Shown here piece after piece: positions 2,680 to 36,509 of a DNA stretch of 64,000 nucleotides. Where the stretch lies: assembly GCA_963836075.1 (NCBI GenBank), contig CAWIIB010000009.1, positions 3,330,442 through 3,394,441 on the forward strand, given 5' to 3'. Under the pieces are notes generated by a model, which worked only from the letters and a program-made list of their open reading frames with translations, ran no database searches and was not told where the DNA came from. The number at the start of each line of letters is the position of its first letter. Position 1 is the first letter of the stretch. This DNA is from an uncultured Acidobacteriota bacterium. Its GTDB lineage: Bacteria > Acidobacteriota > JAQAZP01. A program made the translations under genes and the position numbers.

Positions 2680-3042
2680 TCATGGCGCGTAGGTCGTCAC
2701 CACCTGCAGGCTGGTGTCCGTATCACCCGCCGGCGCGTACGGCGGAAAGTTGTATGGCGGCGGTGTCACGTCCTCGGCCACCAGGCGAAAGCGATTCTCG
2801 CCGATCACCGTGGCCAGGGCCGGGATGTTCTGCATCCAGCTGGTGGTATAGTTCTCACCGGGGGAGAGGTTGGTATAGCCGGCTCGCCAATTCGGGAAGT
2901 AGGACTTGTTGGCCAGGACCACGTCGATGCGCGCCGCCATCCGCCGGGTCTGCTCGCTGTGGTTGTTTACCAGGGAGATCGACATCAGGGTGCTGAAGGG
3001 CACTGTTCCAACCGAAGGCACCGAGGTGATCGTGGCCGAGAT
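2680..3042 (-). other. Shared C-terminal module, copy A (last 120 aa)
   Basis: Aligns without gaps to copies B and C. Shared strings include SYFPNWRAGYTN, EDVT, PPY, GD and a terminal AP. Confidence 0.7.
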
Positions 3043-5775
3043 CGTGGGGGGCAGGGCGTGGCACAGTTCCAGGTGGCTCGGTTCCATGCCCCAGTTTTCC
3101 ATGAACGGGTTCTCAGCGGGCGGCGAGATGGCGGTAGAGGTCATGGTGTAGCCGCCGCCGGGCGGGTACTGGTCCGAGGTGATCAGCGTCTCGCTGCTGA
3201 ACAGGTAGCAGTTTCTCACCATGCCGTCTCTGTCGGTGTGTGCCACGAACGCCTGCACACTGGACGAACCGAAGCTGGTCGTGGACCCGGCAGCGGCAAA
3301 GCCGTCCTCGTGGACCACCAGGGCTTCGAAATTGTCTTCGCCGCCACTACCGATCCGGTGGGCCCAGAGTGCTTGCCCCTCACTGTCGAAACGGCAGAGT
3401 AGGGCGTCATTTGTCGCTCCCCGTACCTGACTGATCCTCCCGCATCCCACCACATCGCCGTCCCCGGTCGGCTTCAGGTCGTAAAGACTTTCGTAGTTCG
3501 ATGTCTCCGCTGTGCGGAACCACTGGCGGGTGCCGTTGCCGGCCAGCTTGACCAGCAGGATGTCGGTGTCGCCGTAGCTGTTGGTGTGACCGCCGAGCAG
3601 CAGGTCGCCACCCGACAGTTCAACTATGCCGTAAAACCTGTCGACACCGGCGCTCCCCGACTGAGAGCACCAGGTGAAGCTGCCGTCATCCTCCATGCGA
3701 ACGGCGATGGCATCCTGGTCGCCACCGTCCGGGTTGGAGTAGCCGGCAATCACCGATCCTCCGCCGCTGAGCGCTATGCCCCGGAGGCCCACTTCGTTCT
3801 GCGCTGTACCCAGCGTCCGCACGGACGGCACGGTGCCGGCGGATGTCAACTCCACCGCCAGCAGGTCGAACAGCCCTTCACCGTAGCTGTCGGTGTTGCC
3901 CACAGCCAGGTAGTTCCCGTCGGATTTCCGGTGGATCGACCAGAGCCGGTCGAACTGGGTGCCGCCGGTGACCGAGGTCCAGAGCACGGCGCCGCCGGAG
4001 TCGAAGCGCATCATCAGCGCATCATCCAGGCCGGCGCCGTAGGTGCTCGTGTATCCCACCACAATGCATCCGCCGTCGTCGGTGACCAGCAGGTCACGGG
4101 GGATTTCATCGTACATGCCGCCGGCTTCCCTGGCCCATTCCAGATCGCCCAGGGCGTCGTATTTGAGCAGCAGCACATCGGTGTTGTAGATACCCACCCA
4201 GGACTGGGTGGCCACGAGGTAGCCCTGGTCAGGGGTTTGCCCTATGGCATCGGCCCAGTCCGGGTCGTCGCGGCCGCTGGCCACCAGCCAGTATTCGGGG
4301 TCCAGGGGTTCATAATCGCATAGGGAATCCCAGTAGAAATACGGATTGACGGCGGTGGTGGTGTAAGCCTGTTCGCCCAGGGTCACCGGGGAGACAGCGA
4401 GGGTCACCGCGGACCAGGCCGGCGTTTGCAGCGGTGAGTAGGTGTCCCAGGTGCGGATGTGGGGGCACCCCGGAACCTGACCGTTGGCGTCCACCGCCGC
4501 CAGTATCGTATCCTGTTCGCCCGTGCCGAAGGGGGTCCTGGTGCCGGCCAGCAGATAGCCCCCGCCAGGCCGGTTGTGTACCTGGCCGGCACGCTCGAAG
4601 CCGTCATCCCCCAGGATACGGACCCACTGCAGACCGCCCACGTCGTCGAAGTCGATCAGCAGGACGTCCTCTAACACGCCGCCGTCGTCACTATCGCCGC
4701 ACACCATGAATCCGCCCCCCTCTCGAAGGGCCAGGGTTTCTCCGCTCTCATCCACGCCCGCGTCGCCCAGGGAGCGGGCCCAGTAGAGCGTTCCATTGGC
4801 GCCGAACCGGGCCACCAGGACATCCTTGGTGCCGGAGGGGTCGTAGTCCTGGGTGGCACCGGAGGCGAAAAAATCACCATTTGGTGCTTCCACGGCATCG
4901 AACAGATAGGAGTAGCCGACATCATCCCCCACCACCGTGGTCCAGGAGACCGTGGTTGTGTCGGCGAACTTGATCAGCAGGCCCTGGGCGTGTGTGGCGA
5001 AACTGCTCGACCAGCCGGTGGCGATGAAGCCGCCATCACTGGTGGCGCTGAAGGACCGGAGGATATCGTTGCTCGAGTCGCCGACGACGGTGGTCTGGAT
5101 CAAATCACCGGTGAAGTCGAACTCCAGCAGCAACACATCGACACTGCCCGGTCCGTATCCGGATCCGTGCGCACCGACGGCCAGGGTGTCGTCGGTGGTG
5201 AGGCAGATGCCCGCAGGGTAGATGGCGGCAGAGCTGCCGGCAAGACGGGTCCACTGGATCGTGCCGTTGGTGTTGTATCTCACCAGCAGAACCCGTGGTT
5301 CTTCTTCACCCAGGACTTCGGTCTTGCCCACCGCCACGAAGGTCCCGTCGGGCAGCTCACAGACGGCTGTGTAAAAGTCGTTCCCCCCGAGGTTCAGAGC
5401 GGAGGCCCAGACCAGGTCCCCCTCGGCATCGTGTCTCATCAGGTGGGCATCAAAGAAATTTCCGGCGGAATTCCAACTGTATCCGGCCACCACCGAGCCG
5501 CCGTCAGCGGTCACGATCATATCCATCGCGTAATCGTAGTCGGGGCCTCCTCCATAGTCGAGGAACAGGTGGTCCCCATCGGCCCGGCTTTTTCCATGGA
5601 GGCCAGCTGCATATTCCGCGGTGACGTCTCTGGACTGAACGTCCACGTGGTGAACCGCTGTCTCCACATCCACGGATCGTGTCTGGAAATCTGCTGCGGA
5701 AACCGCGGCAGGAGCGGTAACGGCCAAAAGGGCAGTGAGGAAAACAGACAGAACGATGATGTGTTTCCGGATCAT
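2680..5775 (-). CDS. Large secreted beta-propeller-repeat protein (SBBP/delta-60-like repeats) with the shared 120-aa C-terminal module
   Basis: A signal peptide follows the internal ATG at 5775 (MIRKHIIVLSVFLTALLAVTAPAAVSA), with GGAG 10 nt upstream. There are more than 15 repeats of the D-G-x-hydrophobic-x-G...D-x-L-L-x-hydrophobic...G-x-x-W type. Confidence 0.6.
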   Translation of the reverse strand: MIRKHIIVLSVFLTALLAVTAPAAVSAADFQTRSVDVETAVHHVDVQSRDVTAEYAAGLHGKSRADGDHLFLDYGGGPDYDYAMDMIVTADGGSVVAGYSWNSAGNFFDAHLMRHDAEGDLVWASALNLGGNDFYTAVCELPDGTFVAVGKTEVLGEEEPRVLLVRYNTNGTIQWTRLAGSSAAIYPAGICLTTDDTLAVGAHGSGYGPGSVDVLLLEFDFTGDLIQTTVVGDSSNDILRSFSATSDGGFIATGWSSSFATHAQGLLIKFADTTTVSWTTVVGDDVGYSYLFDAVEAPNGDFFASGATQDYDPSGTKDVLVARFGANGTLYWARSLGDAGVDESGETLALREGGGFMVCGDSDDGGVLEDVLLIDFDDVGGLQWVRILGDDGFERAGQVHNRPGGGYLLAGTRTPFGTGEQDTILAAVDANGQVPGCPHIRTWDTYSPLQTPAWSAVTLAVSPVTLGEQAYTTTAVNPYFYWDSLCDYEPLDPEYWLVASGRDDPDWADAIGQTPDQGYLVATQSWVGIYNTDVLLLKYDALGDLEWAREAGGMYDEIPRDLLVTDDGGCIVVGYTSTYGAGLDDALMMRFDSGGAVLWTSVTGGTQFDRLWSIHRKSDGNYLAVGNTDSYGEGLFDLLAVELTSAGTVPSVRTLGTAQNEVGLRGIALSGGGSVIAGYSNPDGGDQDAIAVRMEDDGSFTWCSQSGSAGVDRFYGIVELSGGDLLLGGHTNSYGDTDILLVKLAGNGTRQWFRTAETSNYESLYDLKPTGDGDVVGCGRISQVRGATNDALLCRFDSEGQALWAHRIGSGGEDNFEALVVHEDGFAAAGSTTSFGSSSVQAFVAHTDRDGMVRNCYLFSSETLITSDQYPPGGGYTMTSTAISPPAENPFMENWGMEPSHLELCHALPPTISATITSVPSVGTVPFSTLMSISLVNNHSEQTRRMAARIDVVLANKSYFPNWRAGYTNLSPGENYTTSWMQNIPALATVIGENRFRLVAEDVTPPPYNFPPYAPAGDTDTSLQVVTTYAP

Positions 5776-5965
5776 GGTGGGCAAGCTCCTGTGGAAGAAG
5801 ATTGGTTGGGATCTATTCAAATTTTCCTCGGAGGGTCGACGGGAAAACGAGACGAGAAAAAACCTATGAGGAAAATGTAAGTTCTGACGTGGGCTTTGTC
5901 AAGGCGAGGAGATGAAACAGGTTTTTGCATGCAACAAAAGGTGCCTGCCCCATTCTGTTGCGTTT

Positions 5966-6934
5966 TCAGCAGGAGTGGTGGACCGTGGTGAAGGGGATGA
6001 CCAGCGGGAAGCGGTCGGACAGTTCCTCCACCAGGCGGTGCTGTTCACCAGGGGCGGTGAGGGCAATGACAGCCCCGCCGCCGCCTGAGCCGGTGAGCTT
6101 GGCCCCCAGGACGCCTTTCTGCCGGCGCAGCAGGGCAGTGGCCCGGTCGAGTTCAGGCGTGGAGACACCCAGTTGAGCCAGCAGCTCGTGGTTGCGGTTC
6201 ATCAGCTCGCCGGTTTTGGCCAGGTTGCCGGAGACCAGAAGGCTGCTCGCCTCTTCCGCAATCCGGCCGATTTCATTGAGCAATCCCTTGACCAGCCGTT
6301 CGTCCAGGACCAGGTTCTGGCGCACCCTGCGCACCTGCTCCAGGGTGGAGGCTCCAGGTTCGACGATACCGATCAGGCCCGACGGCGGGGTGGGGATGCG
6401 GAGGGGCAGGATTTCCCGCGGGGGCCCCTTGCGAAACCGGAGCACGCCATCGGCCAGCACGGTGGCGGCGTCCATGCCGCTGGGGTTGCCGTGAAAGATC
6501 GATTCCAGCTGCTGCACGTCGTCGAAGAGCGTGCTCTCGCTGTCGCTCTCCTCATGTCCGGCATGGCGGCGCAGGGCCTTGCAGACCCCGGCGGAGAATG
6601 CCGCCGAAGAACCGAGACCCATACCCACCGGCAGGTCCGACTCCACCTCCAGGGCGATGGGCTCCTGTTCCAGGTTGTAGATCGAGAGGCCCTGCTGCAC
6701 CGCCCGGGAGAAGAGATCGAAGCTCGACTCCGGTTCGGTCTCGCCGAAATACTGCTTGAACCGCGGGCGGACCAGCCGCGGCCCCCGGGGATCGTGGCTC
6801 ACCCGGATGCGCATTCCGATGTCGATGGGGGCGGCGATGCCGGGATGGCCGTAAACCGTGGCGTGCTCGCCAAAGAGAATCAGCTTCCCCGGAGCCGGTA
6901 CCTCGAAGGGCAGGTTGGCCTGATTTCTGTTCAT
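5966..6934 (-). CDS. mvk: Mevalonate kinase (GHMP kinase)
   Basis: PGKLILFGEHATVYGHPGIAAPI, GLGSSAAFSAGVC and KLTGSGGGGAVIAL motifs. Lies 8 nt downstream of the IDI-2 gene. Confidence 0.85.
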   Translation of the reverse strand: MNRNQANLPFEVPAPGKLILFGEHATVYGHPGIAAPIDIGMRIRVSHDPRGPRLVRPRFKQYFGETEPESSFDLFSRAVQQGLSIYNLEQEPIALEVESDLPVGMGLGSSAAFSAGVCKALRRHAGHEESDSESTLFDDVQQLESIFHGNPSGMDAATVLADGVLRFRKGPPREILPLRIPTPPSGLIGIVEPGASTLEQVRRVRQNLVLDERLVKGLLNEIGRIAEEASSLLVSGNLAKTGELMNRNHELLAQLGVSTPELDRATALLRRQKGVLGAKLTGSGGGGAVIALTAPGEQHRLVEELSDRFPLVIPFTTVHHSC

Positions 6935-6941
6935 TGGGCGT

Positions 6942-8018
6942 TTACGATTCGTGCCATCCCTTGGCGGAGAGCCAGCGGAACAGTTCCCCGGTGTAGACCC
7001 GGGGCGCCCGCTTCAAGGCAGCGAGGTCTCCGGCCCCGGTGAGCACCATGGCGTTTTTCAACTCACGAATCACCCGGTCCACATACTGGTCCGCGCCGTG
7101 GACGCCCCCTTCGCGGTAGGCGAGGAACACCGAGCGGGCAAAACCGACCAGGTCGGCGCCGGCGGCGATGGCCCGTGCGGCGTCGAGACCGGTGATGATC
7201 CCCCCGGCGCCGATGATGCAGGTGCCGGGACGGCAGGTCCTGCGGGCGGCGATGATGCTGAAAGCGGTGGGAATGCCCCAGTCGGCAAAGGTACCGGCGA
7301 TCTGCCTCGAGGAGTCGTCAACTTCGCGGTGCATCTCCACCTTGGTCCAGGAGGTGCCCCCGGCCCCGGCCACATCGATGCAGGTGACCCCGGCCCGGTC
7401 GAGCATGGCCAGGGTCTCAGGGCTCATTCCTGCGCCGGTCTCCTTGACCAGTACCCTGCCGGGGATGCGTTTGACCAGCTTTTCCAGAGCGTTGAGGATT
7501 CCGCCGAAGTTGCAGTCCCCCTCGGGCTGCACCAGCTCCTGGGCCGGGTTGAGGTGGATGCAGATGGCGTCGGCCTCGATCTGTTCCTTGAGCCCGGCGA
7601 TGGCGGCGGTATCGTATTCCAGCAACTGGGCCCCGCCGATGTTGCCCAGCAGTACCGACTCGGGGATGTGACTGCGCACGGCGAAGTCGGTGAGCGCCTC
7701 GGGGTGGTCGAGGATCACCCGCTGGCTGCCCACCCCGAACCCGATGCCATGCTCGGCGGCCACGGTGGCCAGATCACGATTCATCGCCCCGGCCAGCTCG
7801 GTGCCGCCGGACATGCTGGTGATCAGCAGCGGGGCCCTGAGCTTCCGCCCGAAGAACTCCACCGATGTGTCCACACTGTCCAGGTCGATTTCGGGCAGGG
7901 CCTGGTGGAACAGCCGCACGTGCTCCAGCAGGGTGGTGGACGCGTGGGCCACCGGTTCCTCGGCCACGATCCGCAGGTGATCGGCCTTTCTCGTCCTGAT
8001 TTGATGGTCCCTGGCCAT
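6942..8018 (-). CDS. fni: Isopentenyl-diphosphate delta-isomerase type 2 (FMN-dependent)
   Basis: 358 aa. Has RKADHLRI at the N-terminus and a TIM-barrel FMN oxidoreductase pattern (VKETGAGMS, IDVAGAGGTSW, IIGAGGIITGLD). Confidence 0.85.
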   Translation of the reverse strand: MARDHQIRTRKADHLRIVAEEPVAHASTTLLEHVRLFHQALPEIDLDSVDTSVEFFGRKLRAPLLITSMSGGTELAGAMNRDLATVAAEHGIGFGVGSQRVILDHPEALTDFAVRSHIPESVLLGNIGGAQLLEYDTAAIAGLKEQIEADAICIHLNPAQELVQPEGDCNFGGILNALEKLVKRIPGRVLVKETGAGMSPETLAMLDRAGVTCIDVAGAGGTSWTKVEMHREVDDSSRQIAGTFADWGIPTAFSIIAARRTCRPGTCIIGAGGIITGLDAARAIAAGADLVGFARSVFLAYREGGVHGADQYVDRVIRELKNAMVLTGAGDLAALKRAPRVYTGELFRWLSAKGWHES

Positions 8019-8202: not shown

Positions 8203-10723
8203 ATGAACACTCTTCTGCGCCACCTTCTCCCTTTCGTTATCGTTGCGGTACTACTTACATTCTGTTCCGGTTTGTCGGCCCTGGCCCACCCCTGGCTCTT
8301 CGAGGCGAGGATGGACTTTTTTGCCAACGATGAACCGGGAGGCATCGCCCATGGCGATTTCGATGCCGATGGTGCCGTCGATCTGGCGGTGACCAATTAC
8401 GGATTGGAAACGATCACGATTTTCTTGGGCAAGGGGGACGGCACCTTCGATGAGCTGGGAGTATACGTCGTGGGGCACGAACCCTCATCGCTGGCCGCCG
8501 GGGACCTGAACGGCGACGGCCGGCCGGACCTTGCGGTATCCATGACATCTCCAGGATCGGTGCATGTTCTGCTGGGCAATGGTGACGGCACCTTCCAGGA
8601 TGCCGTGCCCTACGGGACCGCTTCCGGCACGTATTGCGTGGTCATCGCCCACCTGGACTCCGATACGATTCCCGATCTGGTCACATCCAATTTTTACGAG
8701 GACTCTGTTTCCGTCTTTCTGGGCAACGGGGATGGAACATTCGAACATCTGGGAGACCAAGGCGCCGGTGACGGTCCCGCGTGGGTGGCCGTGGACGATT
8801 TTGACGGTGACGGGGATTCCGATCTGGTTACGGCCAATGCCTTTGCCCACACTGTCCGCATTCTCCTGGGAAACGGAGACGGCAGTTTCCAGGCCGGCGC
8901 GGCCTACCAGGCTGGAAGCGACCCGAGGTCGGTGGCTGTGGGCCTGTTCAACGATGACAGCCACCCGGACCTGGTGGCGGCCAATCACCAGTCGGACTAT
9001 CTCTCGCTGTTTCTGGGCAACGGTGATGGTACGTTCCAGCAGGCAATACAGATCGATTCCCACTTCAACATCCGTTCCCTCTCCGTTTCCGACCTTGATG
9101 AGGATGGTCATCAGGACCTGGTGACGGCAAATGTTGGAGACGATACGATCTCGGTGATGGCCGGCAACGGAAACGGCACTTTCGACGCGGCTGTGGACTA
9201 CCGTACCGCCGAAGCCCCGTTGGACGTTGCGGTCGTGGACCTGGACGGTGACGGAATGTCCGATCTCAGTGTGGTGAACTTCTGGAGTGACAACATCTCG
9301 ACATTCAGGGGTAACGGGGACGCCACCTTTGTTGTGCCGTTCTCCATCGAGGTCCATGAACATCCCTGGTCGGTGGCCGCTGCAGATTTCAACGGCGACT
9401 CCATCCTCGACCTGGTGTCCGGCTCCGGGGTAGAGAGTTTGATCTCAGGTCCTGCTGGGATACGGTGACGGCACCTTCCAGACTCCCGTGGACTATTCCG
9501 TGGGCGAAGAGCCGCAATCGATCGCCGTACGTGATCTGAACGGTGACGGCGCCCCTGATCTGGTCACCGCCAACTACGACTCTGACGACCTGTCGGTGCT
9601 GCTGGGCAATGGTGACGGAACATTCCAGTCCGCGGTGGCGTACCAGGTCGGTAACGGTCCCGAATCGGTGGCCGCCGGCGACCTGGATGGTGACGGCATT
9701 CCCGACCTGATGGCGGCCAACAAGTACACCGACGATGTATCGGTGCTGCGGGGCAATGGTGACGGCACGTTTCAGGCCGCGGCATCGTTTCCAGCCGGTG
9801 ATTCGCCAGGCGGAATGGCCGCCGGCGACCTGGACGGCGACGGGGCTCTCGACCTGGGCGTGGCCACGATGGATGGCCTCGCCGTGCTTGCGGGGAATGG
9901 TGGGGGGGCATTTGGGAACCCCGTGTTCTACCCGGCAGGCCCGGACCCCTCCGCCGTGGTCATCGGCGATTTTGATGAGAACGGCATCCCGGACCTGGCG
10001 GTGACCAACTACGAGAGCGACTATATTTCAATGTTTCTGGGTGTCGGTGACGGCACCTTTCAGGCCGCCATGAACCACGCGGTGGGCGACAAGCCCTATG
10101 CCATTGTCGCCGGCGATCTGGACGGGGACTTTCACCTCGACCTGGCGGTGGGGAACATCATCAGCAACAATGTCGCCGTCCTGCCGGGCCACGGTGACGG
10201 CACCTTCGGCGACGTCTTGTTCTACGGTGCCGGATCCGGTCCTCCGACCCTCGCCATCGGAGACTTTGACCGGGATCGCCACCTCGACCTGGTTTCACCA
10301 TCCACCGCCGACAGTCACCTTGAGCTGCTCTTCAACACCACCGGCCTGGTCAAGGGCACCATCTGTGCCGGCCTGGACTGCACACCGTCCTGGGGCACAC
10401 TGCCGTTCCCCGTCACCATGTCGGTGAGGGTGGACAACCTCTATCCCGGGCAGACCCGGCAGTTCGACGCCCGGATCCACGCCACCCTGGCCAGCGGCCA
10501 GTCCATTTACAGCTGGAAGGAGGGGTACCTGAACATCGCCGGCGGCTCCAGCCACACCGTATCCTGGACCCAGGGCTTTCCGCTGCACGACTCCCTGGTG
10601 GGCGAAAACCTCTTCATTCTGGGGACCGAGGATGTCACCCCCACACCCTTCAACCAGCCACCCTACCCGCCGGCCGGGGACAAGTGGGGGGATGACTGCA
10701 CGGTGACCGGCATGGCCCCATGA
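8203..10723 (+). pseudogene. Secreted FG-GAP/VCBS-repeat protein (~840 aa) split by a 1-nt frameshift near 9448, carrying the shared C-terminal module
   Basis: ORFs 8203..9468 and 9488..10723 both consist of the same ~55-aa repeat (DLNGDGxPDLV...S/VLLGNGDGTFQ). The second frame is open from 9443. Removing one G of GG 9448-9449 reads ...ESLISVLLGYGDGTFQTPVDYSVG... A signal peptide is present (MNTLLRHLLPFVIVAVLLTFCSGLSALA). Confidence 0.65.
10361..10723 (+). other. Shared C-terminal module, copy B (last 120 aa)
   Basis: Aligns without gaps to copies A and C. 42 of 120 positions are identical in all three by hand alignment. Confidence 0.7.
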
Positions 10724-10825: not shown

Positions 10826-12106
10826 ATGACGCTCAAGTCATTTCTCGGCCTGGTGGATGAACGTTCCCTGCTGACAAGGGTCTCCCGGCCGGTGGATGTG
10901 CGTTACGAGCTGGCCGCGGTGGCCGGCCGTCTGGGTGAGAAACCGGTTCTGTTCAGCCAGGTAAAAGGCCATGACATGCCGGTGGCGGCCAATGTCTGTG
11001 CCAGCCGGGAACTGGTCTGTCTGGGCCTGGGTGTCTCCGCCGGCAACCTGGTGCCGCGGATGATCGAGGCCATCGACCACCCCCGGGAGCCGGAGGTGGT
11101 GCAGGCCGAGGGATACGAGGAGCGTGCGGCAGACCTCTCGGCGCTGCCGATCCTGACCTACTACCCGCGGGACGGGGGCCCCTATATCGCCTCCGGCATC
11201 ATTTTCTGCCAGGACCGGGAACTGGGTCTCAACGCCTCCTACCACCGGGCCATGGTCATCGGCGAGGACCGGCTGGCGCTGCGGATCCTGCCCCGCCACC
11301 TGCACCAGTACATGGAGCGGGGCCTCACCGAGTTCGCCTTCTGCATCGGCAACACCATCCCGGTGCTGGTGGGTGCGGCCATGTCGGTGGAACTGGACAA
11401 GAGTGAGCTGGCCATTGCCAACGCCCTGCAGCACACGGAGGCGGTGAAACTGGAGGGCCATCTGATCCCGCAGAGCGAGCTGGTGCTGATCTGCGAGTTC
11501 ACCGGTGAGCAGGCTGACGAGGGGCCGTTCCTCGACCTCACCGAGACCTTTGACATCGTGCGCAAGCAGCCGGTGGCCCGGGTGAAAAAGGTGTTCGCCC
11601 GGCCCGATTCGGTCTATCATGCCCTGCTCCCCGGCGGTCCGGAGCACAAGATCCTGATGGGCATGCCGCGGGAGCCGACCATTTTCAGGGAGGTGTCCCG
11701 GTATTGTGACTGCCTGGATGTCCGGATCACGCCTGGTGGCTGCTCCTGGCTCCACGCCGCGGTGAAAATCCGCAAGCAGGACGGTCTTGACGGCAGGCGG
11801 GCCATCGAGGCCGCCTTTGCCGGGCACAGTTCCATGAAGCATGTCTTCGTGGTGGACGAGGACATTGACATCGACGATCCGCATGCTCTGGAGTGGGCTC
11901 TGGCCACCCGTTTCCAGGGGGACCGGGACCTGGTGGTGCGGCCCGGGGAAAAGGGCTCCTCGCTGGACCCGTCGGCCGATCCGGAGACCCGGGAGACCAC
12001 CAAACTCGGTTTTGACCTGACCATCCCCGCCGGGGGGGCGCCGGAGAAGTTCCTGCGTCCCGAGCCCCCGGTGAAAGTGGACCTCGAGGACTACCTGGAG
12101 AACTGA
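10826..12106 (+). CDS. UbiD-family decarboxylase (candidate anhydromevalonate-phosphate decarboxylase)
   Basis: 426 aa with UbiD-like segments (PVLFSQVKGHDMPVAANVCASRE, GGPYIASGIIFCQD, SWLHAAVKI). Sits immediately upstream of the AcnX pair and IPK. Confidence 0.75.
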   Translation: MTLKSFLGLVDERSLLTRVSRPVDVRYELAAVAGRLGEKPVLFSQVKGHDMPVAANVCASRELVCLGLGVSAGNLVPRMIEAIDHPREPEVVQAEGYEERAADLSALPILTYYPRDGGPYIASGIIFCQDRELGLNASYHRAMVIGEDRLALRILPRHLHQYMERGLTEFAFCIGNTIPVLVGAAMSVELDKSELAIANALQHTEAVKLEGHLIPQSELVLICEFTGEQADEGPFLDLTETFDIVRKQPVARVKKVFARPDSVYHALLPGGPEHKILMGMPREPTIFREVSRYCDCLDVRITPGGCSWLHAAVKIRKQDGLDGRRAIEAAFAGHSSMKHVFVVDEDIDIDDPHALEWALATRFQGDRDLVVRPGEKGSSLDPSADPETRETTKLGFDLTIPAGGAPEKFLRPEPPVKVDLEDYLEN

Positions 12107-12113
12107 CCGAACC

Positions 12114-13301
12114 ATGGAACTGAGCAGGGAACAGCAGCGGCTGCTGGACGGCGAGCAGGGAGAGGTGACCTCCCGCCTGATGCGCCTGCTGGTCAGCCTG
12201 GGTGAGATCTTCGGGGCCCGGCGGATGGTGGATGTGGGCTCGACCCAGGTGTCCGGCGTGTCGTACAAATCGATCGGCGAGCCGGGGCTGGAGTTCCTTG
12301 AGGACCTGGCCCGGGAGGGCGTGCAGGTGAGAGTGCCCACCAGCCTCAACCCGGCCGGCATGGACCTCCAGGGCTGGCGGGAACTGGGTATCCCCGAAGC
12401 CTTTGCCGTGAAACAGCAGCGGATCATGGCCGCCTTTGGCGCCATGGGGATCACCGCGCCGCCCACCTGCACCCCCTACCTCATCGGCAGCGTCCCCCAA
12501 CCCGGCGAGCACGTGGCCTGGGCCGAGAGCTCGGCGGTGATCTTTGTCAACTCGGTGCTGGGGGCGCGGACCAACCGCGAGGGCGGCCCGTCGGCCCTGG
12601 CCGCGGCGGTCTGCGGCTGCACCCCCTGCTACGGCCTGCACCTCGACGAAAACCGGCGGCCCACGGTGCTGGTGGAGGTGGACGCCCGTCTCGAATCCAA
12701 CGCCGACTACGGCGCCCTGGGCTACTGCCTGGGCCGCAAGGTGCGCGGGGCCATCCCCTTCATCACCGGGATCGAAGCGGCCGGCAGGGACAACCTCAAG
12801 TCGTTCGGCGCGGCCATGGCGGCCAGCGGAGCGGTGGCCCTGTACCACGCTCGGGGGGTGACTCCCGAGGCGCCGGAGATGCCCACCGCCGGCCTGGAGC
12901 GGATCAAGGTGGGGCAGGGCGAGCTGGACACGCTGGCCGCCGGTCTCGATGCCGGGGAGACCCCCGACCTGGTGGTCACCGGCTGTCCCCACGCCTCGCT
13001 GGAGGAGGTGGCCGCGGTGGCCGGGCAGGTCCGCGGACGGACGCTCCGTGTGCCGGTCTGGGTCTGCACCTCCCGGGTGATCAAGGAGCGGGCGGAGAGC
13101 GAGGGCTACCTGGCCCGGATCGAGGCCGCCGGCGGACGTATCGTGGCCGACACCTGTATGGTGGTCTCACCGCTGGAGGAGCTGGACTACGGGGTCACCT
13201 CGGTGGACTCGGGCAAGGCAGCCAACTACCTCCCCGGGTTCTGCCGGCAGAAGGTGAACTTCCGCGACCTTCACGACATCATCGAGGAGGTGCTGGAATG
13301 A
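12114..13301 (+). CDS. Aconitase X catalytic subunit (DUF521-like; candidate phosphomevalonate dehydratase large subunit)
   Basis: 395 aa. MVDVGSTQVSGVSYKSIGEPGLEFLE, CTPYLIG and ESSAVIFVNSVLGARTNREGG match AcnX-type patterns. Overlaps the next gene by 4 nt. Confidence 0.75.
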   Translation: MELSREQQRLLDGEQGEVTSRLMRLLVSLGEIFGARRMVDVGSTQVSGVSYKSIGEPGLEFLEDLAREGVQVRVPTSLNPAGMDLQGWRELGIPEAFAVKQQRIMAAFGAMGITAPPTCTPYLIGSVPQPGEHVAWAESSAVIFVNSVLGARTNREGGPSALAAAVCGCTPCYGLHLDENRRPTVLVEVDARLESNADYGALGYCLGRKVRGAIPFITGIEAAGRDNLKSFGAAMAASGAVALYHARGVTPEAPEMPTAGLERIKVGQGELDTLAAGLDAGETPDLVVTGCPHASLEEVAAVAGQVRGRTLRVPVWVCTSRVIKERAESEGYLARIEAAGGRIVADTCMVVSPLEELDYGVTSVDSGKAANYLPGFCRQKVNFRDLHDIIEEVLE

Positions 13302-13681
13302 AGGGCCGGACCATCATGACCGGCAGGGCTGAAGGCCGGGCGCTGGTTTCGCGGACGCCGATCAGTTTCTACGGCGGGGTTGACGCCAAAACCGGGATGA
13401 TCATCGAGCAGGGGCACGAACTGGAGGGGCAGTGTCTCAGCGGCACGATCCTCGTCTTCCCCTGCGGCAAGGGCTCCACCGTGGGCTCCTACGTGATCTA
13501 CGGCCTGCAGAAGAACGGCGTGGCCCCGCTGGCCATCGTCAACGAGGAGACGGAGACCATCATCGCCACCGGCGCCATCCTCGCCGGGATTCCCTGTGTG
13601 GACGGGGTCGACATCAGCGGCATCAGCAGCGGCGACAGACTGCGGGTGGACGGCGCCGCCGGCCTGGTGGAAAAGGACTGA
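13298..13681 (+). CDS. Aconitase X swivel subunit (DUF126-like; candidate phosphomevalonate dehydratase small subunit)
   Basis: 127 aa with GRAEGRALVSRTPISFYGGVD...ILVFPCGKGSTVGSYVIY. The ATGA overlaps the large-subunit stop. Confidence 0.75.
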   Translation: MKGRTIMTGRAEGRALVSRTPISFYGGVDAKTGMIIEQGHELEGQCLSGTILVFPCGKGSTVGSYVIYGLQKNGVAPLAIVNEETETIIATGAILAGIPCVDGVDISGISSGDRLRVDGAAGLVEKD

Positions 13682-13688
13682 ACCGGAG

Positions 13689-14471
13689 ATGGGACAGCAA
13701 CTGGTTTTCGTCAAGCTGGGCGGGTCGCTGATCACCGACAAGACGAAGCCGTACACCGCCAGGCCTGAAGTGATCGCCCGGGCGGCGTCCGAGATTCACC
13801 GGGCGCGGAACAAGGCCGGTCTGGCCCTGCTGGTGGGCCACGGCGGCGGCAGCTTCCCCCATGTCAGCGCCGCAAAGTACCGGATTCACAAGGGAGCCTC
13901 CGATGCCCGGGGCTGGGAGGGTTTTGCCAGGGTGCAGGCCGATGCGGCGCGACTGAACCGCATGGTTGTTTCGGCGCTGCTGGAAGCCGGGGAACCGGCC
14001 ATCTCCGTCCAGCCTTCGGCGGCCTGCCTGGCCCGGGACCGCCGTCTGGAGCGCTGGGATGGCCAGGCGCTGGAGCAGTGCCTGGCCCGGGGCCTGGTGC
14101 CGGTACCTTACGGCGATGTCTGTTTTGACGAGGCCCGGGGCTGCTGCATCCTCTCCACCGAGGAGATCTTCCGCTTTCTCGCTCCGCGGCTCCGACCTGC
14201 GCGGATCATCATGGCCGGCAAGACCGACGGCGTGCTGGACGAGGAGGGGAACACCGTCCCCGAGCTCACCCCCGCGGACCTCGGTCGAATGAAGAGTGCA
14301 CTCTCCGCCTCGGACGGCGTGGCCGACGTCACCGGCGGCATGGTGCACAAGGTGGAGAGGGCCCTGGAGACCGGTGTGGCCACCCTGATCATCAACGGCC
14401 TGCGGCCCGGGGAACTGGAGAAGGCCCTCCTCGGCCGCCCGGTGGCCGGCACGCTGGTCACCCGCGGCTGA
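13689..14471 (+). CDS. Isopentenyl phosphate kinase (amino-acid kinase fold)
   Basis: Internal ATG at 13689, 8 nt after the upstream stop. Has LVFVKLGGSLITDK and GHGGGSFPH motifs, 260 aa. Confidence 0.8.
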   Translation: MGQQLVFVKLGGSLITDKTKPYTARPEVIARAASEIHRARNKAGLALLVGHGGGSFPHVSAAKYRIHKGASDARGWEGFARVQADAARLNRMVVSALLEAGEPAISVQPSAACLARDRRLERWDGQALEQCLARGLVPVPYGDVCFDEARGCCILSTEEIFRFLAPRLRPARIIMAGKTDGVLDEEGNTVPELTPADLGRMKSALSASDGVADVTGGMVHKVERALETGVATLIINGLRPGELEKALLGRPVAGTLVTRG

Positions 14472-15662: not shown

Positions 15663-16562
15663 TCAGCCGATAAAGATGCCGATGGCCATCAGAATCGGCG
15701 TGGCAATCACAATGATCACGTTGCGGCCCAGGAAGGGCACCAGCTCGGGTATGGATGTGGCGTACCTGGCCGCGCCTCGAGCCGTTGGGATGGCGAGGAG
15801 CAGTGTGCCCAGACCCAGCAGGGCGAAGGGTGGAAGTTGCCGGAGGACCACACCGAGGACGATGGAGAGATAGGCCAGGGCGAGGAACGTGATGTAGACC
15901 CGGACCGCGGCCGGGACGCCCCAGGCGATGGGCAGGTGGTGCCGGCCCACTTCACGATCGGCATCTACATCGGGGAACTGGTTGATCAGCAACAGGTTGC
16001 TGACCAGGAAAAAGGGGACCAGCGAGGCGATGAATGAGGGCCAGTTGTAAGTCCCGGTGAGGGCGAAGTGTGTGCCCATCACCATCAGCGGCCCGAAGCC
16101 GAGACCCGGGGCGATGAGGCAGATCAGGGGGCTGCGGGTGATCCAGCGGGTGTAGAGGACGATGACCAGCAGGCCCAGCAGACCGAGGGGAATGATCCCC
16201 CAGCCGCGGAGGATGGTGAAATAGACGCCCACCGATACGGTGAACAAAGCCGAGGCCACCCCGGTGAGCAGGGCCACGTGGGCCTGCCCCGGGTTGCCGG
16301 GCAGGGCGCCGCTGCCGCCGCTGAACGGCGTGCGCTCGGTCTTCATGTCGAGGCCGGTGCGAAAGTCGTCGAACTCGTTCAGGGCGTTTACGCTGATGTG
16401 TGCCGCCACGGCACCGGCGAGGGCCATAATCACCGGCAGCGGTGAGATGGAGGCGCCGCTCCAGACCGCGGTGGCCACGCCCGCCAGCACGCAGGCCGGG
16501 GTGAGGATCAGAAAAGGCAGGCGCATCGGCCCGAACAGGGGGCTGGGAGCGGCGTCGGTCAT
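15663..16562 (-). CDS. UbiA-family (MenA-like) membrane prenyltransferase
   Basis: 299 aa and polytopic. The first Asp-rich motif NEFDDFRTGLD fits N-[DE]-x2-D-x3-G-x-D. Confidence 0.65.
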   Translation of the reverse strand: MTDAAPSPLFGPMRLPFLILTPACVLAGVATAVWSGASISPLPVIMALAGAVAAHISVNALNEFDDFRTGLDMKTERTPFSGGSGALPGNPGQAHVALLTGVASALFTVSVGVYFTILRGWGIIPLGLLGLLVIVLYTRWITRSPLICLIAPGLGFGPLMVMGTHFALTGTYNWPSFIASLVPFFLVSNLLLINQFPDVDADREVGRHHLPIAWGVPAAVRVYITFLALAYLSIVLGVVLRQLPPFALLGLGTLLLAIPTARGAARYATSIPELVPFLGRNVIIVIATPILMAIGIFIG

Positions 16563-18678: not shown

Positions 18679-21405
18679 TCATTCGGCCCGGACGCCGGCG
18701 ATATTGCCCCCGTAGGTCATCCAGTCATTGTAGGCAAGGAAGCTGTGGTCGGCGATATAATCGACCCTGCTCTCCCGGACTTTATACGAATGGAGATAGG
18801 CCTTTGCCTCAGGGTCCGGGCCCTGCAGGGTAAGGATTTCATCCACGCCGTCCTGGTCCGCATCCCCGGCCGAGACTTTGGCGCCATACCAGGTGCCATA
18901 GTAAGGAAAGGCGATGAAATTGACGTTGCCCATCAGGGTCAGGTTGCCACCGTCAAAGTTCCACCCCCGGATGTGACCGGAGAACGAGGGCCCCGGGCCC
19001 GGGGCGGTGAGGATCTCGTCGATCCCGTCGCCGTCGATATCGCCGGCCGCCACTTCCACCCCGAAACGGGGTGTGTTGTAGGCGAAGAAGTTGACCCCCG
19101 GGATCGGGGTGGTGCTGCCGCCGTCGTCGTGGTTCCAGCCCCGCACGTGGGCGCCGAACACCGGCCCGGGCCCGGCCCCGGTGATGATCTCATCGAAACC
19201 GTCGCCGTCGATATCGCCGGTGGCCACTTTCACCCCGAATCGGGGCGTGTTGTAGGCGAAGAAGTTGACCCCCGGGATGGGGAGAACGGTGCCGCTGCCG
19301 TCATGGTTCCAGCCCCGCACGTGGGCGCCGAACACCGGACCGGGTCCGGCGCCGGTGATGATCTCATCCTTCCCGTCGCCGTCGATGTCGCCGGCCGCCA
19401 CGTTGACCCCGTGGCGGTGCGTGCCGTAGGCCATGAAACTGCCCCCGGTCACGGGGGTGCCGCTCATCGACCAGCAGCGGACGTGGGGGCCGAAGATCTG
19501 GCCCGGGCCAGGCCCGGTGATCACTTCGGATGCTCCATCACCATGGAGGTCTCCGCAGGCCACGTTGACGCCATAACCCGGGACGCCGTAGGCCAGCCAC
19601 TGGGCTGCGGGGGTGCGGACCAGCGGCGGGTTGTACCTGCCGGGGCCGGGGCCGGTGACCATGTTGACCATTCCCTCATCCGCTTCCCATGGATAAACGA
19701 ATATGGTGCGCACGGCGGGGGTGTTGTCGATCCGTCCCTCGAGATCCCGGGTCCGGACGGAGAAGGTATGGGCTCCTTCGGTGAGGCCCTGGAGCACGGC
19801 ATGCTGGACGGTGCTGAACGGGCTCCAGCTATCCGAGTCGACCTTCCAGGAGTATTGCAGTCCTTCGGCGGAGCCATGATGGTTGCGACCCGAAAACGCG
19901 AAAGTGAACATGGGTGAATCCACACCCCACTCCGGACCGGACGTGATCGTGGTGTCCGGATCGCGCACGGTGACGAAGTGGTGCCAGCCCATGTCGGCGA
20001 CGCCGGTATCGTCCAGGCCGTCGGTGCGGGTGCTGCCGATGACCCGGGCGTCGGAAAAGTCGCCCGAGTCGACACAGGGGCTCTGCACGGCCTGCCCGGA
20101 CGTGAACTGGCTCAGGTAGTGGTCGCCGCCCGGCCCGGCGGCGAACTCGGGATCGCCGGTGATCATCCCCTCCCCCCAGATGAATGTCACGTCATCGTCC
20201 ACTACGCAGGAGCCCGTACCGCCCTCCACGTCGCAGTGGCTGAATTTGATTGTGCACGGATAGGAGCTGGTGTAATTGCAGACGTAGAGTTCCGGGCCTT
20301 GCCATCCCGCCTCGTCATTCCAGAGTATCGAATTGACAATGACCAGGCTGTCCGCCTGCCCGGGGGATGGACCGTGAAATGACCTGTTGAAGTAGATCCC
20401 GCCGCCCTCGCCGGCGCTGTTCCCGTAGAATGTACTGCTGTTGATGGTGTGATTGCCGCCCCACTCGAAGGCGATCCCGCCGCCGCTCCCGGCATGGTTC
20501 TGCACAAAGATGTTGTTCACCAGGAAGGAGCTTCCACCGATCAAGTAAATTCCGCCGCCCAGGTCCGCGTCGTTCCAGCGAAATACGTTTTTCGAAATCT
20601 CCCCCGGCTTGCTACTGAAACAGCAGATAGCACCGCCACGGCTGGGGGCTTCCATGTACCCTCCGGCTTCATTGCCGATGAAGGTGTTCTCCACGATGGT
20701 GGGGATAGAATCATTTCCACAGAAGATTCCGCCGCCCCCATAACCGTAAGTCGTACTGCCAGTGACATTGTGTGAGATGGTGTTCAGGGCGATGCGTGGA
20801 CTGCTGCCTTCGCTGCAATAGATGCCTCCACCGTCGTGAGCCCGGTTCCCGGTGATGATGTTGCCCACGATGGTGGGGGAGGCGCCGTTACCACAAACGA
20901 TCGCTCCACCCACAGTGGCCCGGTTGCCGGTGAGAATGTTGTAGGCGATTCGCGGTGAACTGTTTTGACAGAGGATGGCGCCGCCGCCAAAAGTAGTCCC
21001 GTAGCCATTGCGGATAGTGAACCCCTGCACAACCGATTTCTCGGACTCCCCACTTTGAAAGATGAACCCGCGGTGAGCGGTGGGACTGTCGACACGGCCG
21101 CAATCGATGATGCAGAAGTGGGTCTCGCCAGCCGACTTGACGGTGATCGCCTTGCCGTGGAAATCGATATCCCTGTTGCCGTCACCTGTGTACAGACCGT
21201 TGGCCACCAGCACCGTGTCGCCGTCAGCGGCGGCGTCGATCCCCGCCTGGATCGTGGGCTGGTCGGCCGGCACATGGATCGCGGCCGCCATGACCGATGC
21301 CGCCGGTATGGTGATGAGGATGAAGAAAACGAGAGCGAGTGCGGTGGAAAGCGGTGCGCGGTTGTGGGGATTCGATGCCGATTGACCGATCATGATGGCC
21401 TCCAT
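18679..21405 (-). CDS. Secreted right-handed beta-helix protein with C-terminal FG-GAP repeats
   Basis: Signal/TM segment, then PbH1-like repeats (N-x-I-x-G-N-x-A-x-x-GGGI). Four GDIDGDGxDEIITGAGPGPVFGAHVRGW repeats follow. Confidence 0.65.
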   Translation of the reverse strand: MEAIMIGQSASNPHNRAPLSTALALVFFILITIPAASVMAAAIHVPADQPTIQAGIDAAADGDTVLVANGLYTGDGNRDIDFHGKAITVKSAGETHFCIIDCGRVDSPTAHRGFIFQSGESEKSVVQGFTIRNGYGTTFGGGAILCQNSSPRIAYNILTGNRATVGGAIVCGNGASPTIVGNIITGNRAHDGGGIYCSEGSSPRIALNTISHNVTGSTTYGYGGGGIFCGNDSIPTIVENTFIGNEAGGYMEAPSRGGAICCFSSKPGEISKNVFRWNDADLGGGIYLIGGSSFLVNNIFVQNHAGSGGGIAFEWGGNHTINSSTFYGNSAGEGGGIYFNRSFHGPSPGQADSLVIVNSILWNDEAGWQGPELYVCNYTSSYPCTIKFSHCDVEGGTGSCVVDDDVTFIWGEGMITGDPEFAAGPGGDHYLSQFTSGQAVQSPCVDSGDFSDARVIGSTRTDGLDDTGVADMGWHHFVTVRDPDTTITSGPEWGVDSPMFTFAFSGRNHHGSAEGLQYSWKVDSDSWSPFSTVQHAVLQGLTEGAHTFSVRTRDLEGRIDNTPAVRTIFVYPWEADEGMVNMVTGPGPGRYNPPLVRTPAAQWLAYGVPGYGVNVACGDLHGDGASEVITGPGPGQIFGPHVRCWSMSGTPVTGGSFMAYGTHRHGVNVAAGDIDGDGKDEIITGAGPGPVFGAHVRGWNHDGSGTVLPIPGVNFFAYNTPRFGVKVATGDIDGDGFDEIITGAGPGPVFGAHVRGWNHDDGGSTTPIPGVNFFAYNTPRFGVEVAAGDIDGDGIDEILTAPGPGPSFSGHIRGWNFDGGNLTLMGNVNFIAFPYYGTWYGAKVSAGDADQDGVDEILTLQGPDPEAKAYLHSYKVRESRVDYIADHSFLAYNDWMTYGGNIAGVRAE

Positions 21406-34366: not shown

Positions 34367-36127
34367 ATGTCGATCACGGGCAATGACAAACCAGGGAAGA
34401 TCGAGCACATGCTGGCCGACAGTGATCTCCCCTTCGCTCACCGCAAAATGATGCTCAAACAGCTGATCAAGCACAGCAGCGAGGAGACGGATTCCATACT
34501 GGAGTCGATCCTCAACGGTGGTGAGAACAACAAACTGGACAAGACCCTGGCCCGCAAGGTCAAGTCGTACAACGAGAAGCTCAAGGCGCTGGAGGAGGGC
34601 CCGGTGCGGCCGGGCACCTTTCTTGGCTCCCGCCCGCACAGTAGTGGTGCGGTGACCCGTGTGCAGGTGAGGCTGGAGGACGGCACGACGGTGTTTCCGC
34701 TGCTGCCCCGCCCCCGTCTGCTGCGGGAACTGCGGCGGGGGGACTCCGTGGTGCTGGACGGTCAGGCCCAGGCCGTCATCTCCCGTGAACCCGCCGCTGA
34801 GTGGTCGGGGGAGGTGGCGACCTACGAACGGCGGATCGGTCCGGAGCATGTGGAGATTTCCGTCCGCGGGGACGAGCGCCATGTCTTCGACGCCTCCCAC
34901 GGGGTCATCGATCTGCTGAACCGGGAGAGTGTGGAGCCGGGCCGCCGGTTGCTGATCTGCCAGCGGCGGAAGTTCGTCATGGGGGTCGTGCCCGAGGAGG
35001 AGGGGCGGGTCCACTACCGCTATCTCGACCGGATGGCGGTGCCCGATGTGGTGGCGGAGCGGGACCTGGGAGATCCCCCGGCCTACCTCGACGAACTGAT
35101 GAGTCATCTGCGGATGGAGATGACCAGGCCCGATCTGCGCCGCCGCTACGGTCTGCGCCGCTGCGCGATGAAGCTGCTGGCCGGGATCAGCGGTTCGGGC
35201 AAGAGCTACTCGCTGCTGGCCCTGTGGAATGCGATGTACCAGCTGATGGCCGAAGTGACCGGAGTGCAGGTGGAGGATCTGCCGTCCCGGGTGATGCGCT
35301 TTCGGCCGGCCCAGCTGCTCAGCCACTGGTTCGGGGACAGTGACAGGAATATCGACCGCTTTTTCGGTGAGGTGCACCGGCTGGCCGACGAAAAATTTGC
35401 CGGCCCCGGGGGCAAGGTCTATGAACTGCCGGTGCTGGTGATCCTCGAGGAAGTGGATGGGATGAGCCGTGCCCGGGGGGGTGACGACATCTATGACCGG
35501 ATCATGTCCACCCTGCTGGAACTGCTTGACCCCACACGCCAGGCGCTCAGCGACCGCATGATCATCTTGGTGGGCACCACCAACGTGCCGGAGCAGATCG
35601 ATCCGGCCTTCCTGCGCCGGATCGGGGGGACCATCGAAACCTTTGGCCATCTCAATCGGAGGAATTTCAGGGAGGTGCTGCGCAAGCGGCTGCAGCGGAT
35701 ACCCCTGGCTGCCCGGGACGGAATGGGCGATGACGATCTGCTGCAGGGGATGGTCAACGAACTGACCTCCTGGCTTTTCAGTTCCAACGGAGAGGACCAC
35801 GGCCAGGTGGAGATTTCTCTGGTGGGCTCCGCCGAGCCGCTGGTCCACCGCCGCAGGGACTTTCTCACCGCCGGCATGGTGGACCGGGCCGTACAGCAGG
35901 TGGCCGATCTGGCCTGCACGGAAGAGGATGCCGGCAGCGCCAACCCCGGCCTGACCCCGGCGATGCTGAAAAAGGCGCTGGACCGCCAGGTGCGGGCCAT
36001 TGTGGACCTGCTCAGCCCGGGGAATGTGGGCAACTATCTGCAGTTGCCCGATGGGGTGCGGGTCCAGGGCATCAGGGTCATCGAGCGGCCGGTGATCCAT
36101 TCTTTTGAGCTGGTGCGGGCGAGCTGA
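34367..36127 (+). CDS. Classical-clade AAA+ ATPase with a coiled-coil and OB N-domain (PAN/Mpa/ARC-like architecture)
   Basis: Coiled-coil KLDKTLARKVKSYNEKLKALEEGP is followed by VRPGTFLG...VQVRLEDGTTVFPLL...LRRGDSVVLDG (OB-like). A second OB-like segment follows. Walker A is GISGSGKS, Walker B VLVILEEVDG, SRH ILVGTTNVPEQIDPAFLRRIGG. Confidence 0.8.
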   Translation: MSITGNDKPGKIEHMLADSDLPFAHRKMMLKQLIKHSSEETDSILESILNGGENNKLDKTLARKVKSYNEKLKALEEGPVRPGTFLGSRPHSSGAVTRVQVRLEDGTTVFPLLPRPRLLRELRRGDSVVLDGQAQAVISREPAAEWSGEVATYERRIGPEHVEISVRGDERHVFDASHGVIDLLNRESVEPGRRLLICQRRKFVMGVVPEEEGRVHYRYLDRMAVPDVVAERDLGDPPAYLDELMSHLRMEMTRPDLRRRYGLRRCAMKLLAGISGSGKSYSLLALWNAMYQLMAEVTGVQVEDLPSRVMRFRPAQLLSHWFGDSDRNIDRFFGEVHRLADEKFAGPGGKVYELPVLVILEEVDGMSRARGGDDIYDRIMSTLLELLDPTRQALSDRMIILVGTTNVPEQIDPAFLRRIGGTIETFGHLNRRNFREVLRKRLQRIPLAARDGMGDDDLLQGMVNELTSWLFSSNGEDHGQVEISLVGSAEPLVHRRRDFLTAGMVDRAVQQVADLACTEEDAGSANPGLTPAMLKKALDRQVRAIVDLLSPGNVGNYLQLPDGVRVQGIRVIERPVIHSFELVRAS

Positions 36128-36173
36128 TCCGGAATCGCCGTCCGGACGGGGAAAGATCGAGGAGGAGAGGCAG

Positions 36174-36509
36174 ATGGCCGACGAACGGAGGAGACCGAAA
36201 AGAGAGGAGACCGGGCCAGGTCCCGGTGGCCTCGGTGATGTGTTTGCCGGACCCGAAACGGGCGGGGCGGTAACGGTTTGCCATGGACCGTACAGCGAGG
36301 ATCTGCCGGTGGGCAACATGAGTGTGGGTGAGGTCCGGCGCCGGTTCTCGGACCGCCTGGACATCGACCCCCAGAGCCAGGCGGTGATCGACGGCAACGA
36401 GGTGGACGACAGCACCGTGCTGCGCGGCGGCCAACTGCTGGCCTTTATCCGGCAGGCTGGTGAAAAGGGCGGGAGGAGACGGTCCCACGGGGGAGGATCG
36501 CCATGTTGA
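36174..36509 (+). CDS. Second ubiquitin-like (ThiS/MoaD-type beta-grasp) protein with an internal GG followed by an 11-aa tail
   Basis: RBS GGAGGAGAGG. VTVCHGPYSEDLPVGNMSVGEVRRRFSDRLDIDPQSQAVIDGNEVDDSTVLRGGQLLAFIRQAGEKGG-RRRSHGGGSPC. Overlaps the next gene by 7 nt. Confidence 0.6.
   Translation: MADERRRPKREETGPGPGGLGDVFAGPETGGAVTVCHGPYSEDLPVGNMSVGEVRRRFSDRLDIDPQSQAVIDGNEVDDSTVLRGGQLLAFIRQAGEKGGRRRSHGGGSPC

Follow-up and report, generated by a model that had tools for sequence, protein, structure and literature searches.

Modular C-terminal cargo and anchor domains are an already known kind of protein element. The CTDs of the T9SS, both type A and FlgD_ig, are beta-sandwiches of about 75-90 aa that lie at the extreme C-terminus of Sec-exported proteins with diverse passengers, with tens of carriers per genome. 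To our knowledge, the T9SS is confined to the Bacteroidota/FCB group and is not known in Acidobacteriota. Dockerin (PF00404) and SLH (PF00395) domains are likewise modular, mostly C-terminal and found on many unrelated secreted proteins. They tether their carriers to a common partner (cohesin and the secondary cell-wall polymer, respectively), tolerate occasional internal or duplicated positions, and are typical of Gram-positive envelopes. The dockerin is a Ca-binding helical pair and the SLH domain is a helical bundle. LPXTG, PEP-CTERM, GlyGly-CTERM, and MYXO-CTERM are much shorter signals of about 25-35 aa, in which a motif is followed by a TM helix and a basic tail, and are cleaved by a dedicated sortase (Haft, bioRxiv 10.1101/2023.06.07.544157). 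Little is known of how diderms beyond the Bacteroidota superphylum bring enzymes and adhesins in large numbers to the cell surface.

Here we describe a 120-aa module that ends three secreted proteins encoded in a 64,000-nucleotide stretch of DNA (hereafter the window) from an uncultured Acidobacteriota bacterium. The module represents a family that is undescribed in the sequence libraries and literature that we searched; what is new is the family itself, its sequence features, and its host lineage. We think it probable that the module is a lineage-specific C-terminal targeting or anchoring domain of an uncultured diderm clade labelled Acidobacteriota.

Three window proteins share a gapless C-terminal module

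A preliminary description of this DNA held that the C-termini of a beta-propeller protein, an FG-GAP protein, and an M28 peptidase align over 120 aa without gaps. A MAFFT alignment bears this out, and each of the three intervals encodes 120 aa plus a stop codon (copy A, 2680-3042, minus strand; copy B, 10361-10723, plus strand; copy C, 57596-57958, plus strand). We found the same 42 invariant columns out of 120 that had been counted before, and the same 43 identities over the 63 positions from SYFPNW to GDTD in copies A and C. Pairwise, the copies are identical at 52/120 (A-B), 68/120 (A-C), and 58/120 (B-C) positions, with BLASTP E-values from 1e-33 to 1e-49. The carriers are otherwise unrelated, as had been stated: their passenger parts show no mutual similarity by BLASTP (E >= 0.1; best E 0.1). 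When a six-frame translation of the window was scanned with an HMM of the three copies, matches were found at copies A, B, and C only. Because DNA identity among them is only 54-65%, we regard the copies as old paralogous domains. The same identity range, together with the presence of only three copies in the window, rules out a recent DNA repeat or mobile element.

Family matches confirm the identities that had been assigned to the three carriers. Carrier A (2680-5775, minus strand) is a secreted beta-propeller protein of the delta-60/SBBP type, about 1031 aa in length, with an ATG at 5775 and the signal peptide MIRKHIIVLSVFLTALLAVTAPAAVSA; a TTG at 5820 is a possible alternative start (2680-5820, minus strand). 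Its matches to delta-60/SBBP-like repeat families all fall below curated cut-offs. The passenger of P0095, from another assembly, is 100% identical to that of carrier A. Carrier C (55010-57958, plus strand) is a 982-aa secreted M28 peptidase with a signal peptide, the M28 domain at residues 232-436, middle domains, and the module at 863-982. P0235 is 100% identical to carrier C and sits on a 3.5-Mb contig; the window probably derives from this contig, which would then have at least a fourth copy of the module, in P0011. The window is also syntenic with one module-bearing MAG, at 82-93% amino-acid identity.

Carrier B, an FG-GAP repeat protein, is encoded by a gene of about 840 codons (8203-10723, plus strand) in which a 1-nt frameshift near 9443-9468 separates two ORFs, 8203-9468 and 9488-10723. 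Frame 2 is open from 9443, and the FG-GAP repeat extends upstream of 9488 in a different frame. In a related MAG, the orthologue (L040, 605-3121) is a single uninterrupted ORF of 839 aa with 82% identity. The frameshift at 9440-9470 is either an assembly error or the mark of a pseudogene. The preliminary description had credited all three carriers with signal peptides. Carriers A and C do have them; ORF 9488-10723 as read does not, and the signal peptide of carrier B (MNTLLRHLLPFVIVAVLLTFCSGLSALA) is instead found on the upstream ORF 8203-9468.

The module family and its predicted fold

The preliminary description recognized no sorting signal in the module, and our searches agree: neither a Pfam and NCBIfam profile scan (E <= 10) nor a PDB sequence search gave a match to a sorting signal or to any other known family, and the Ig-like Pfam families PKD, CARDB, and fn3 were no exception. 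A literature search on the module motif, the accessions, and Acidobacteriota or Thermoanaerobaculia in combination with T9SS or sorting found nothing relevant.

The window copies score 211.6 (A), 214.9 (B), and 211.5 (C) bits in the new family, of which 319 cluster representatives are members at E <= 1e-30. Across 184 members, the conserved features are C-x-P-x-x-G-T-L-P-F, N-W-R-x-G-Y, and an invariant Pro-rich loop, D-V-T-P-x-P-Y-N-Q-P-P-Y-P-x-x-G-D. A Cys pair, C7 in the first strand and C113 in the last, is present in 162 of the 184, including copies B and C, and is missing from copy A. The chain ends in x-Pro: Pro is the last residue in about 200 of 205 sequences, and the last two residues are AP in 160 of these 205. 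The aromatic residues W52, Y56, W69, and Y102 are conserved. So are T93 and Q99, while there is no conserved Lys, a pattern that bears on the idea of an ester, isopeptide, or thioester cross-link.

The structure prediction that had been proposed as a check yielded a generic Ig/FnIII-like beta-sandwich of 7-8 strands (AlphaFold2 model of copy C, pLDDT 97.6, from a 49-sequence alignment). In the model, an ordered loop of 16 residues joins the last two strands, and the Pro-rich loop is modelled as ordered (pLDDT 97-99). A Foldseek search with this model returned nothing below E 1e-3. The nearest folds were those of RbmA, which is a scaffold of the biofilm matrix, of CARDB and PKD, and of accessory domains of glycosidases, and no T9SS CTD was among the matches listed. 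Going by the model, the module is an autonomously folding Ig/FnIII-like beta-sandwich, usually with a disulfide between its first and last strands.

Carriers are exported proteins with diverse passengers

The module forms the C-terminus of 220 of the 232 database proteins that we retrieved, of 108 of 115 ORFs in 75 genome loci (no more than three residues from the stop), and of 91 of 97 carriers in 79 metagenome loci. The strictly C-terminal position that had been described therefore holds for about 93-95% of carriers and fails for rare internal, tandem, and standalone copies. Single internal copies, which would speak weakly against a sorting tag as first proposed, occur in P0152, P0158, and P0160; in the last of these, a C1 peptidase is followed by the module and then by a CBM96 domain. 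Two copies are present in eight of the 232 database proteins. The upstream copy lacks the terminal AP in these proteins, and the downstream copy is of a divergent subtype, although its chain still ends in x-Pro. In P0089, P0090, P0092, P0094, P0105, and P0124, the C-terminal copy has extra Cys residues (…CIxLEN…CWDE…) and the upstream copy is canonical except for the AP. Standalone genes of about 160 codons (P0082, P0083, and P0086) encode a signal peptide followed by a divergent module (34-40% identity), and P0082 and P0086 have a lipobox-like Cys. The gene for P0082 (L076, 10001-10489, on a 160-kb contig of a different organism) lies between VanZ-like and MscS-like genes.

A signal-peptide-like N-terminus was found in 88 of 111 carriers, and nine more carriers are cut at a locus edge. 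The enrichment in secreted proteins that was to be expected of a sorting tag is present: by a permissive heuristic, 84 of 102 carriers have a signal peptide, compared with 202 of 403 other genes (Fisher p 1.6e-9). The passengers are diverse, with at least 27 Pfam families represented in 60 representatives, including beta-helix, NosD, Chlam_PMP, FG-GAP, BNR, LTD, Kelch, M28, S8, and GH5. NCBIfam matches of the passengers include the “choice-of-anchor” family TIGR03803 and families whose members elsewhere carry PEP-CTERM or MYXO-CTERM or are T9SS-dependent.

The family is restricted to a narrow lineage

Building an HMM from the three copies and counting carriers in the databases, as had been suggested, revealed dozens of paralogues per genome within a narrow lineage. 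When 1.84 billion cluster representatives were searched exhaustively with a profile, the search returned 491 carriers at E <= 1e-3 (319 at E <= 1e-30). A pattern scan that covered 185,579 species, with one genome each, yielded 139 matches that were confirmed, and the 80 of these that were listed are all in three MAGs, two of them labelled Acidobacteriota or Ca. Sulfomarinibacteraceae and one “uncultured bacterium.” In the fetched loci alone, two of the three MAGs encode at least 67 and at least 38 unique carriers. The matches in metagenomes, too, trace back to a small number of related sample series, and the Ga0180429-36 and RCNC/RCNG sites are rich in this clade. A match to TIGR03436, an Acidobacteria-signature family, supports the Acidobacteriota label, and the genes for an OprB porin and a TonB-dependent receptor in related loci indicate that the host envelope is diderm.

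Homologous passengers carry other C-terminal tails

Homologues that match the M28 carrier in length and architecture have tails that differ by lineage. The passenger alignment of the M28 proteins runs to about residue 850, just short of the module. P0235-P0244 have the module as their tail beyond this point. A homologue of the same length, P0273, instead has a FlgD_ig tail (residues 901-968 of 979), as does a Ca. Eisenbacteria homologue, P0252, whose tail is a FlgD_ig-type CTD. P0280 ends in a Por_Secre_tail T9SS CTD (936-1011 of 1014), P0307 and P0324 in a dockerin, P0325 in an SLH domain, and P0267 in an FG-GAP propeller. The beta-propeller passenger tells a similar story: PF18962 is present in about 10 of its 24 homologues, several of which bear the name “T9SS type A sorting domain-containing protein,” while dockerin and cohesin are present in two of the 24. 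Because the tails of both the M28 and the beta-propeller homologues vary by lineage, we conclude that the module sits where evolution places sorting or anchoring modules.

A probable role in targeting or anchoring

The C-terminal position, the signal peptides, the unrelated passengers, the paralogues, the narrow range, and the equivalence of slots all point to a shared targeting or anchoring domain. The sorting, anchoring, or secretion tag of the preliminary description is thus partly supported; by profile comparison, the module shows no homology to T9SS CTDs, and it does not have the layout of PEP-CTERM-type signals, with their helix and basic tail. In the scheme that we propose, Sec would export the passenger to the periplasm by way of the N-terminal signal peptide, and the C-terminal module would be recognized by one shared partner, which could be an OM machine for export or attachment or else a receptor or polymer of the cell surface or matrix. 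Enzymes, propellers, and beta-helix proteins that are unrelated to one another would thereby reach, and stay at, the same extracytoplasmic place, with the module in the role that, in homologous proteins of other lineages, falls to T9SS CTDs, dockerins, and SLH domains. We infer that a common partner for the module exists.

There are several ways in which such a domain could work. We tentatively lean toward a binding anchor that is not cleaved, since a stable anchor of this kind would account somewhat better than a cleaved signal for the disulfide, for the conservation of aromatic residues, and for the rare tandem, internal, and standalone copies. A translocation signal that is cleaved like the T9SS CTD is possible, though we doubt it. 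Similarly doubtful is the possibility that an undiscovered OM export or surface-attachment pathway of Thermoanaerobaculia-like Acidobacteriota uses the module as its cargo signal, which would then be an analogue of the T9SS CTD with an independent origin. A dedicated translocon or attachment enzyme would in that case read the invariant Pro-rich loop together with the Pro at the free C-terminus. Such a pathway, if it exists, would count as a new system of secretion or anchoring.

Among known elements, the tripartite signals (LPXTG, PEP-CTERM, and the like) resemble the module in that, within a limited lineage, a single C-terminal signature is common to many paralogous cargos of each genome, and their passenger families partly overlap with those of the module. 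The module, however, is a soluble, folded domain of 120 aa. It has no hydrophobic helix, its end (...C-x-V-T-G-x-A-P) lacks the hydrophobic stretch of a PEP-CTERM/LPXTG layout, and it has no match to an NCBIfam sorting signal. The dockerin and SLH domains have helical folds, whereas the model of the module is all-beta, and no match to PF00404 was found in the module with Pfam. The partners of these two domains are known.

The preliminary description gave a common binding domain as the alternative to a sorting tag, and the rare internal, tandem, and standalone copies keep that alternative alive. In this case, the module would be of the CBM or adhesin type and would bind an environmental polymer or the exopolysaccharide of its own cell, so that secreted enzymes and adhesins would be held at their substrate, with no role in sorting or secretion. 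The folds closest to the model (RbmA, CARDB, PKD, and glycosidase accessory domains) are in line with such a function, and the conserved W52, Y56, W69, and Y102 would also fit a glycan-binding module. Tandem, internal, and standalone lipoprotein forms are also what one would sooner expect of a binding module than of a leader-like signal, P0160 combines the module with CBM96, and a C-terminal FG-GAP propeller is an alternative tail in the same genomes. RbmA FnIII, CARDB, PKD, and macroglobulin MG domains are only 6-17% identical to the module in sequence and have no Pfam match to it, and generic Ig/FnIII-like domains are found at variable positions and in arrays, whereas the module is single and at the extreme C-terminus in about 95% of carriers. 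However, this position, together with the terminal Pro, would be unusual for a CBM or an Ig spacer. Many of the passengers are non-enzymatic propellers or beta-helices, substrate-binding modules spread widely rather than being concentrated in a narrow taxonomic range with at least 67 carriers in one genome, and the slot in homologues is taken by a T9SS CTD, dockerin, or SLH domain. We therefore regard a pure binding module as unlikely.

We consider it very unlikely that the module is a highly diverged T9SS CTD that is read by a T9SS and cleaved by a PorU-like sortase. The extreme C-terminal position, the 7-8-strand beta-sandwich, and the Sec signal peptides would be consistent with such an origin, as would the replacement of Por_Secre_tail and FlgD_ig CTDs by the module in M28 homologues of the same architecture and, likewise, in the beta-propeller homologues. 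Homology is rejected by hhalign, which gave probabilities of 1.7% against the type-A CTD and 1.0% against the FlgD_ig type, compared with 99.8% for a control between these two. Neither PF18962 nor TIGR04183 matched the module in the Pfam and NCBIfam scans (E <= 10). The module is also about 40 residues longer than a T9SS CTD, without profile similarity to it, and its Cys pair (and usual disulfide), Pro-rich loop, terminal Pro, and occasional tandem, internal, or standalone copies are features of its own.

The host also argues against a diverged CTD. Its Acidobacteriota label is backed by TIGR03436, and the DNA that we sampled showed no T9SS genes. We found no canonical T9SS CTD in 1.09 Mb plus 0.82 Mb of related DNA, a biased sample in which most genes have no annotation, and no T9SS components among the window genes or about 20 annotated locus proteins. 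The motif RGG[SA][WFY], a signature of FGE-sulfatase and GldK-like proteins, is absent from the loci. The only PorE-like match was rejected, as it proved to be a match to a PD40 repeat only, far below cutoff.

It is most improbable that the module is merely a folding helper or stabilizing cap (an intramolecular chaperone, or a domain like the PPC or P-domains of secreted proteases) with no common partner: it is a compact, disulfide-bonded sandwich, its Pro-rich loop is modelled as ordered and so could be conserved for purely structural reasons, and it is present on M28, S8, and C1 peptidases, but it is also attached to at least 27 unrelated passenger folds, including self-sufficient propellers and beta-helices, exists as standalone genes, and replaces T9SS, dockerin, or SLH tails, which would not be expected of a folding helper.

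With at least 67 exported proteins of a single genome bearing it, a targeting or anchoring domain of this kind would define the surface proteome or exoproteome of this uncultured Acidobacteriota clade and would offer a handle for finding the partner machinery. The module also merits its own Pfam or NCBIfam model: in the region that it covers, hundreds of proteins are now “hypothetical.”

Genes in the neighborhood of carriers

The preliminary description had suggested looking for a co-occurring sortase, exosortase, or T9SS-like machinery. As with the T9SS, no processing or secretion machinery was found in the window or the sampled loci, and clustering of the neighbor genes in 75 loci gave no recurrent machinery-like neighbor of the carriers. 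The only neighbor clusters were paralogous secreted proteins with FG-GAP tails, sulfatases, and two-component regulators. Selected OMP-like and large proteins of the loci were a porin, a TonB receptor, CHAT-TPR proteins, a GGT, and a VWA protein.

One conserved OMP-like protein of 550 aa, with a signal peptide and the end ...YTMISYRF, is encoded in carrier-rich regions of two genomes (L013, 11609-13258, minus strand; orthologue in L035, 11043-12701, minus strand). It has no match in Pfam, NCBIfam, or PDB. It is a candidate partner, but its presence in both regions is probably a matter of synteny only.

A second recurrent tail is found in the genomes that encode the module: an FG-GAP propeller forms the C-terminus of about 40 secreted proteins, whose passengers are NosD/beta-helix, Lcl_C, and M28 and which often adjoin carriers of the module. 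Most of them end in ...GxDLDGDGRDELVVGPGPDP...VKVYxYDG...SLQAFP...THGxNVAAGRF. Examples are encoded in L044 (2489-4978 and 5088-7601) and L001 (5323-7623), as well as in the window (18679-21405, minus strand), where the protein has a different end, ...GGNIAGVRAE.

About 20 clustered paralogues are also encoded near carriers (L059, 2081-4294; L014, 4297-5889; L042, 3214-5043; and about 17 others). Three of the members that we tested are PF00884 sulfatases, and many members end in ...L(R/K)ALGY(V/I/L)x. The member from L030 is an all-TPR protein that was joined to the cluster by single linkage.

Other features of the window and related loci

Between 5966 and 16562, the window contains a cluster that resembles an archaeal-type (AcnX/UbiD) mevalonate pathway, here in a bacterium, and is interrupted by the gene for the FG-GAP carrier. 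The cluster encodes a GHMP kinase (5966-6934), an FMN_dh/IDI-2-like protein (6942-8018), a UbiD-like protein (10826-12106), aconitase X (12114-13301, with a possible small subunit at 13298-13681), an amino-acid-kinase/IPK-like protein (13596-14471), and a UbiA prenyltransferase (15663-16562). Its synteny is kept in L040.

A stretch of lower GC content (0.586 at 28-32 kb) extends from 29291 to 39175. A bacterial island for ubiquitin-like conjugation or for defence is a possible reading of its gene content: it encodes two ThiF/E1-like proteins (29944-31191 and 38345-39175), a Prok-JAB deubiquitinase-like protein (37440-38348), a protein with a weak Prok-RING match (29291-29932), an AAA ATPase (34340-36127), and several ORFs that have no family match.

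CHAT-TPR proteins are encoded in L047 (2919-6176), L059 (7624-10929), and L021 (1932-4808). Those from L047 and L059 end in a hydrophobic helix and an RRRR tail (...LLPLLLIVLGLLAVAGGIWMLRRRR), and that from L021 has a similar hydrophobic stretch followed by RQRRINLF. These C-terminal ends could be either membrane anchors or tripartite-like sorting signals.
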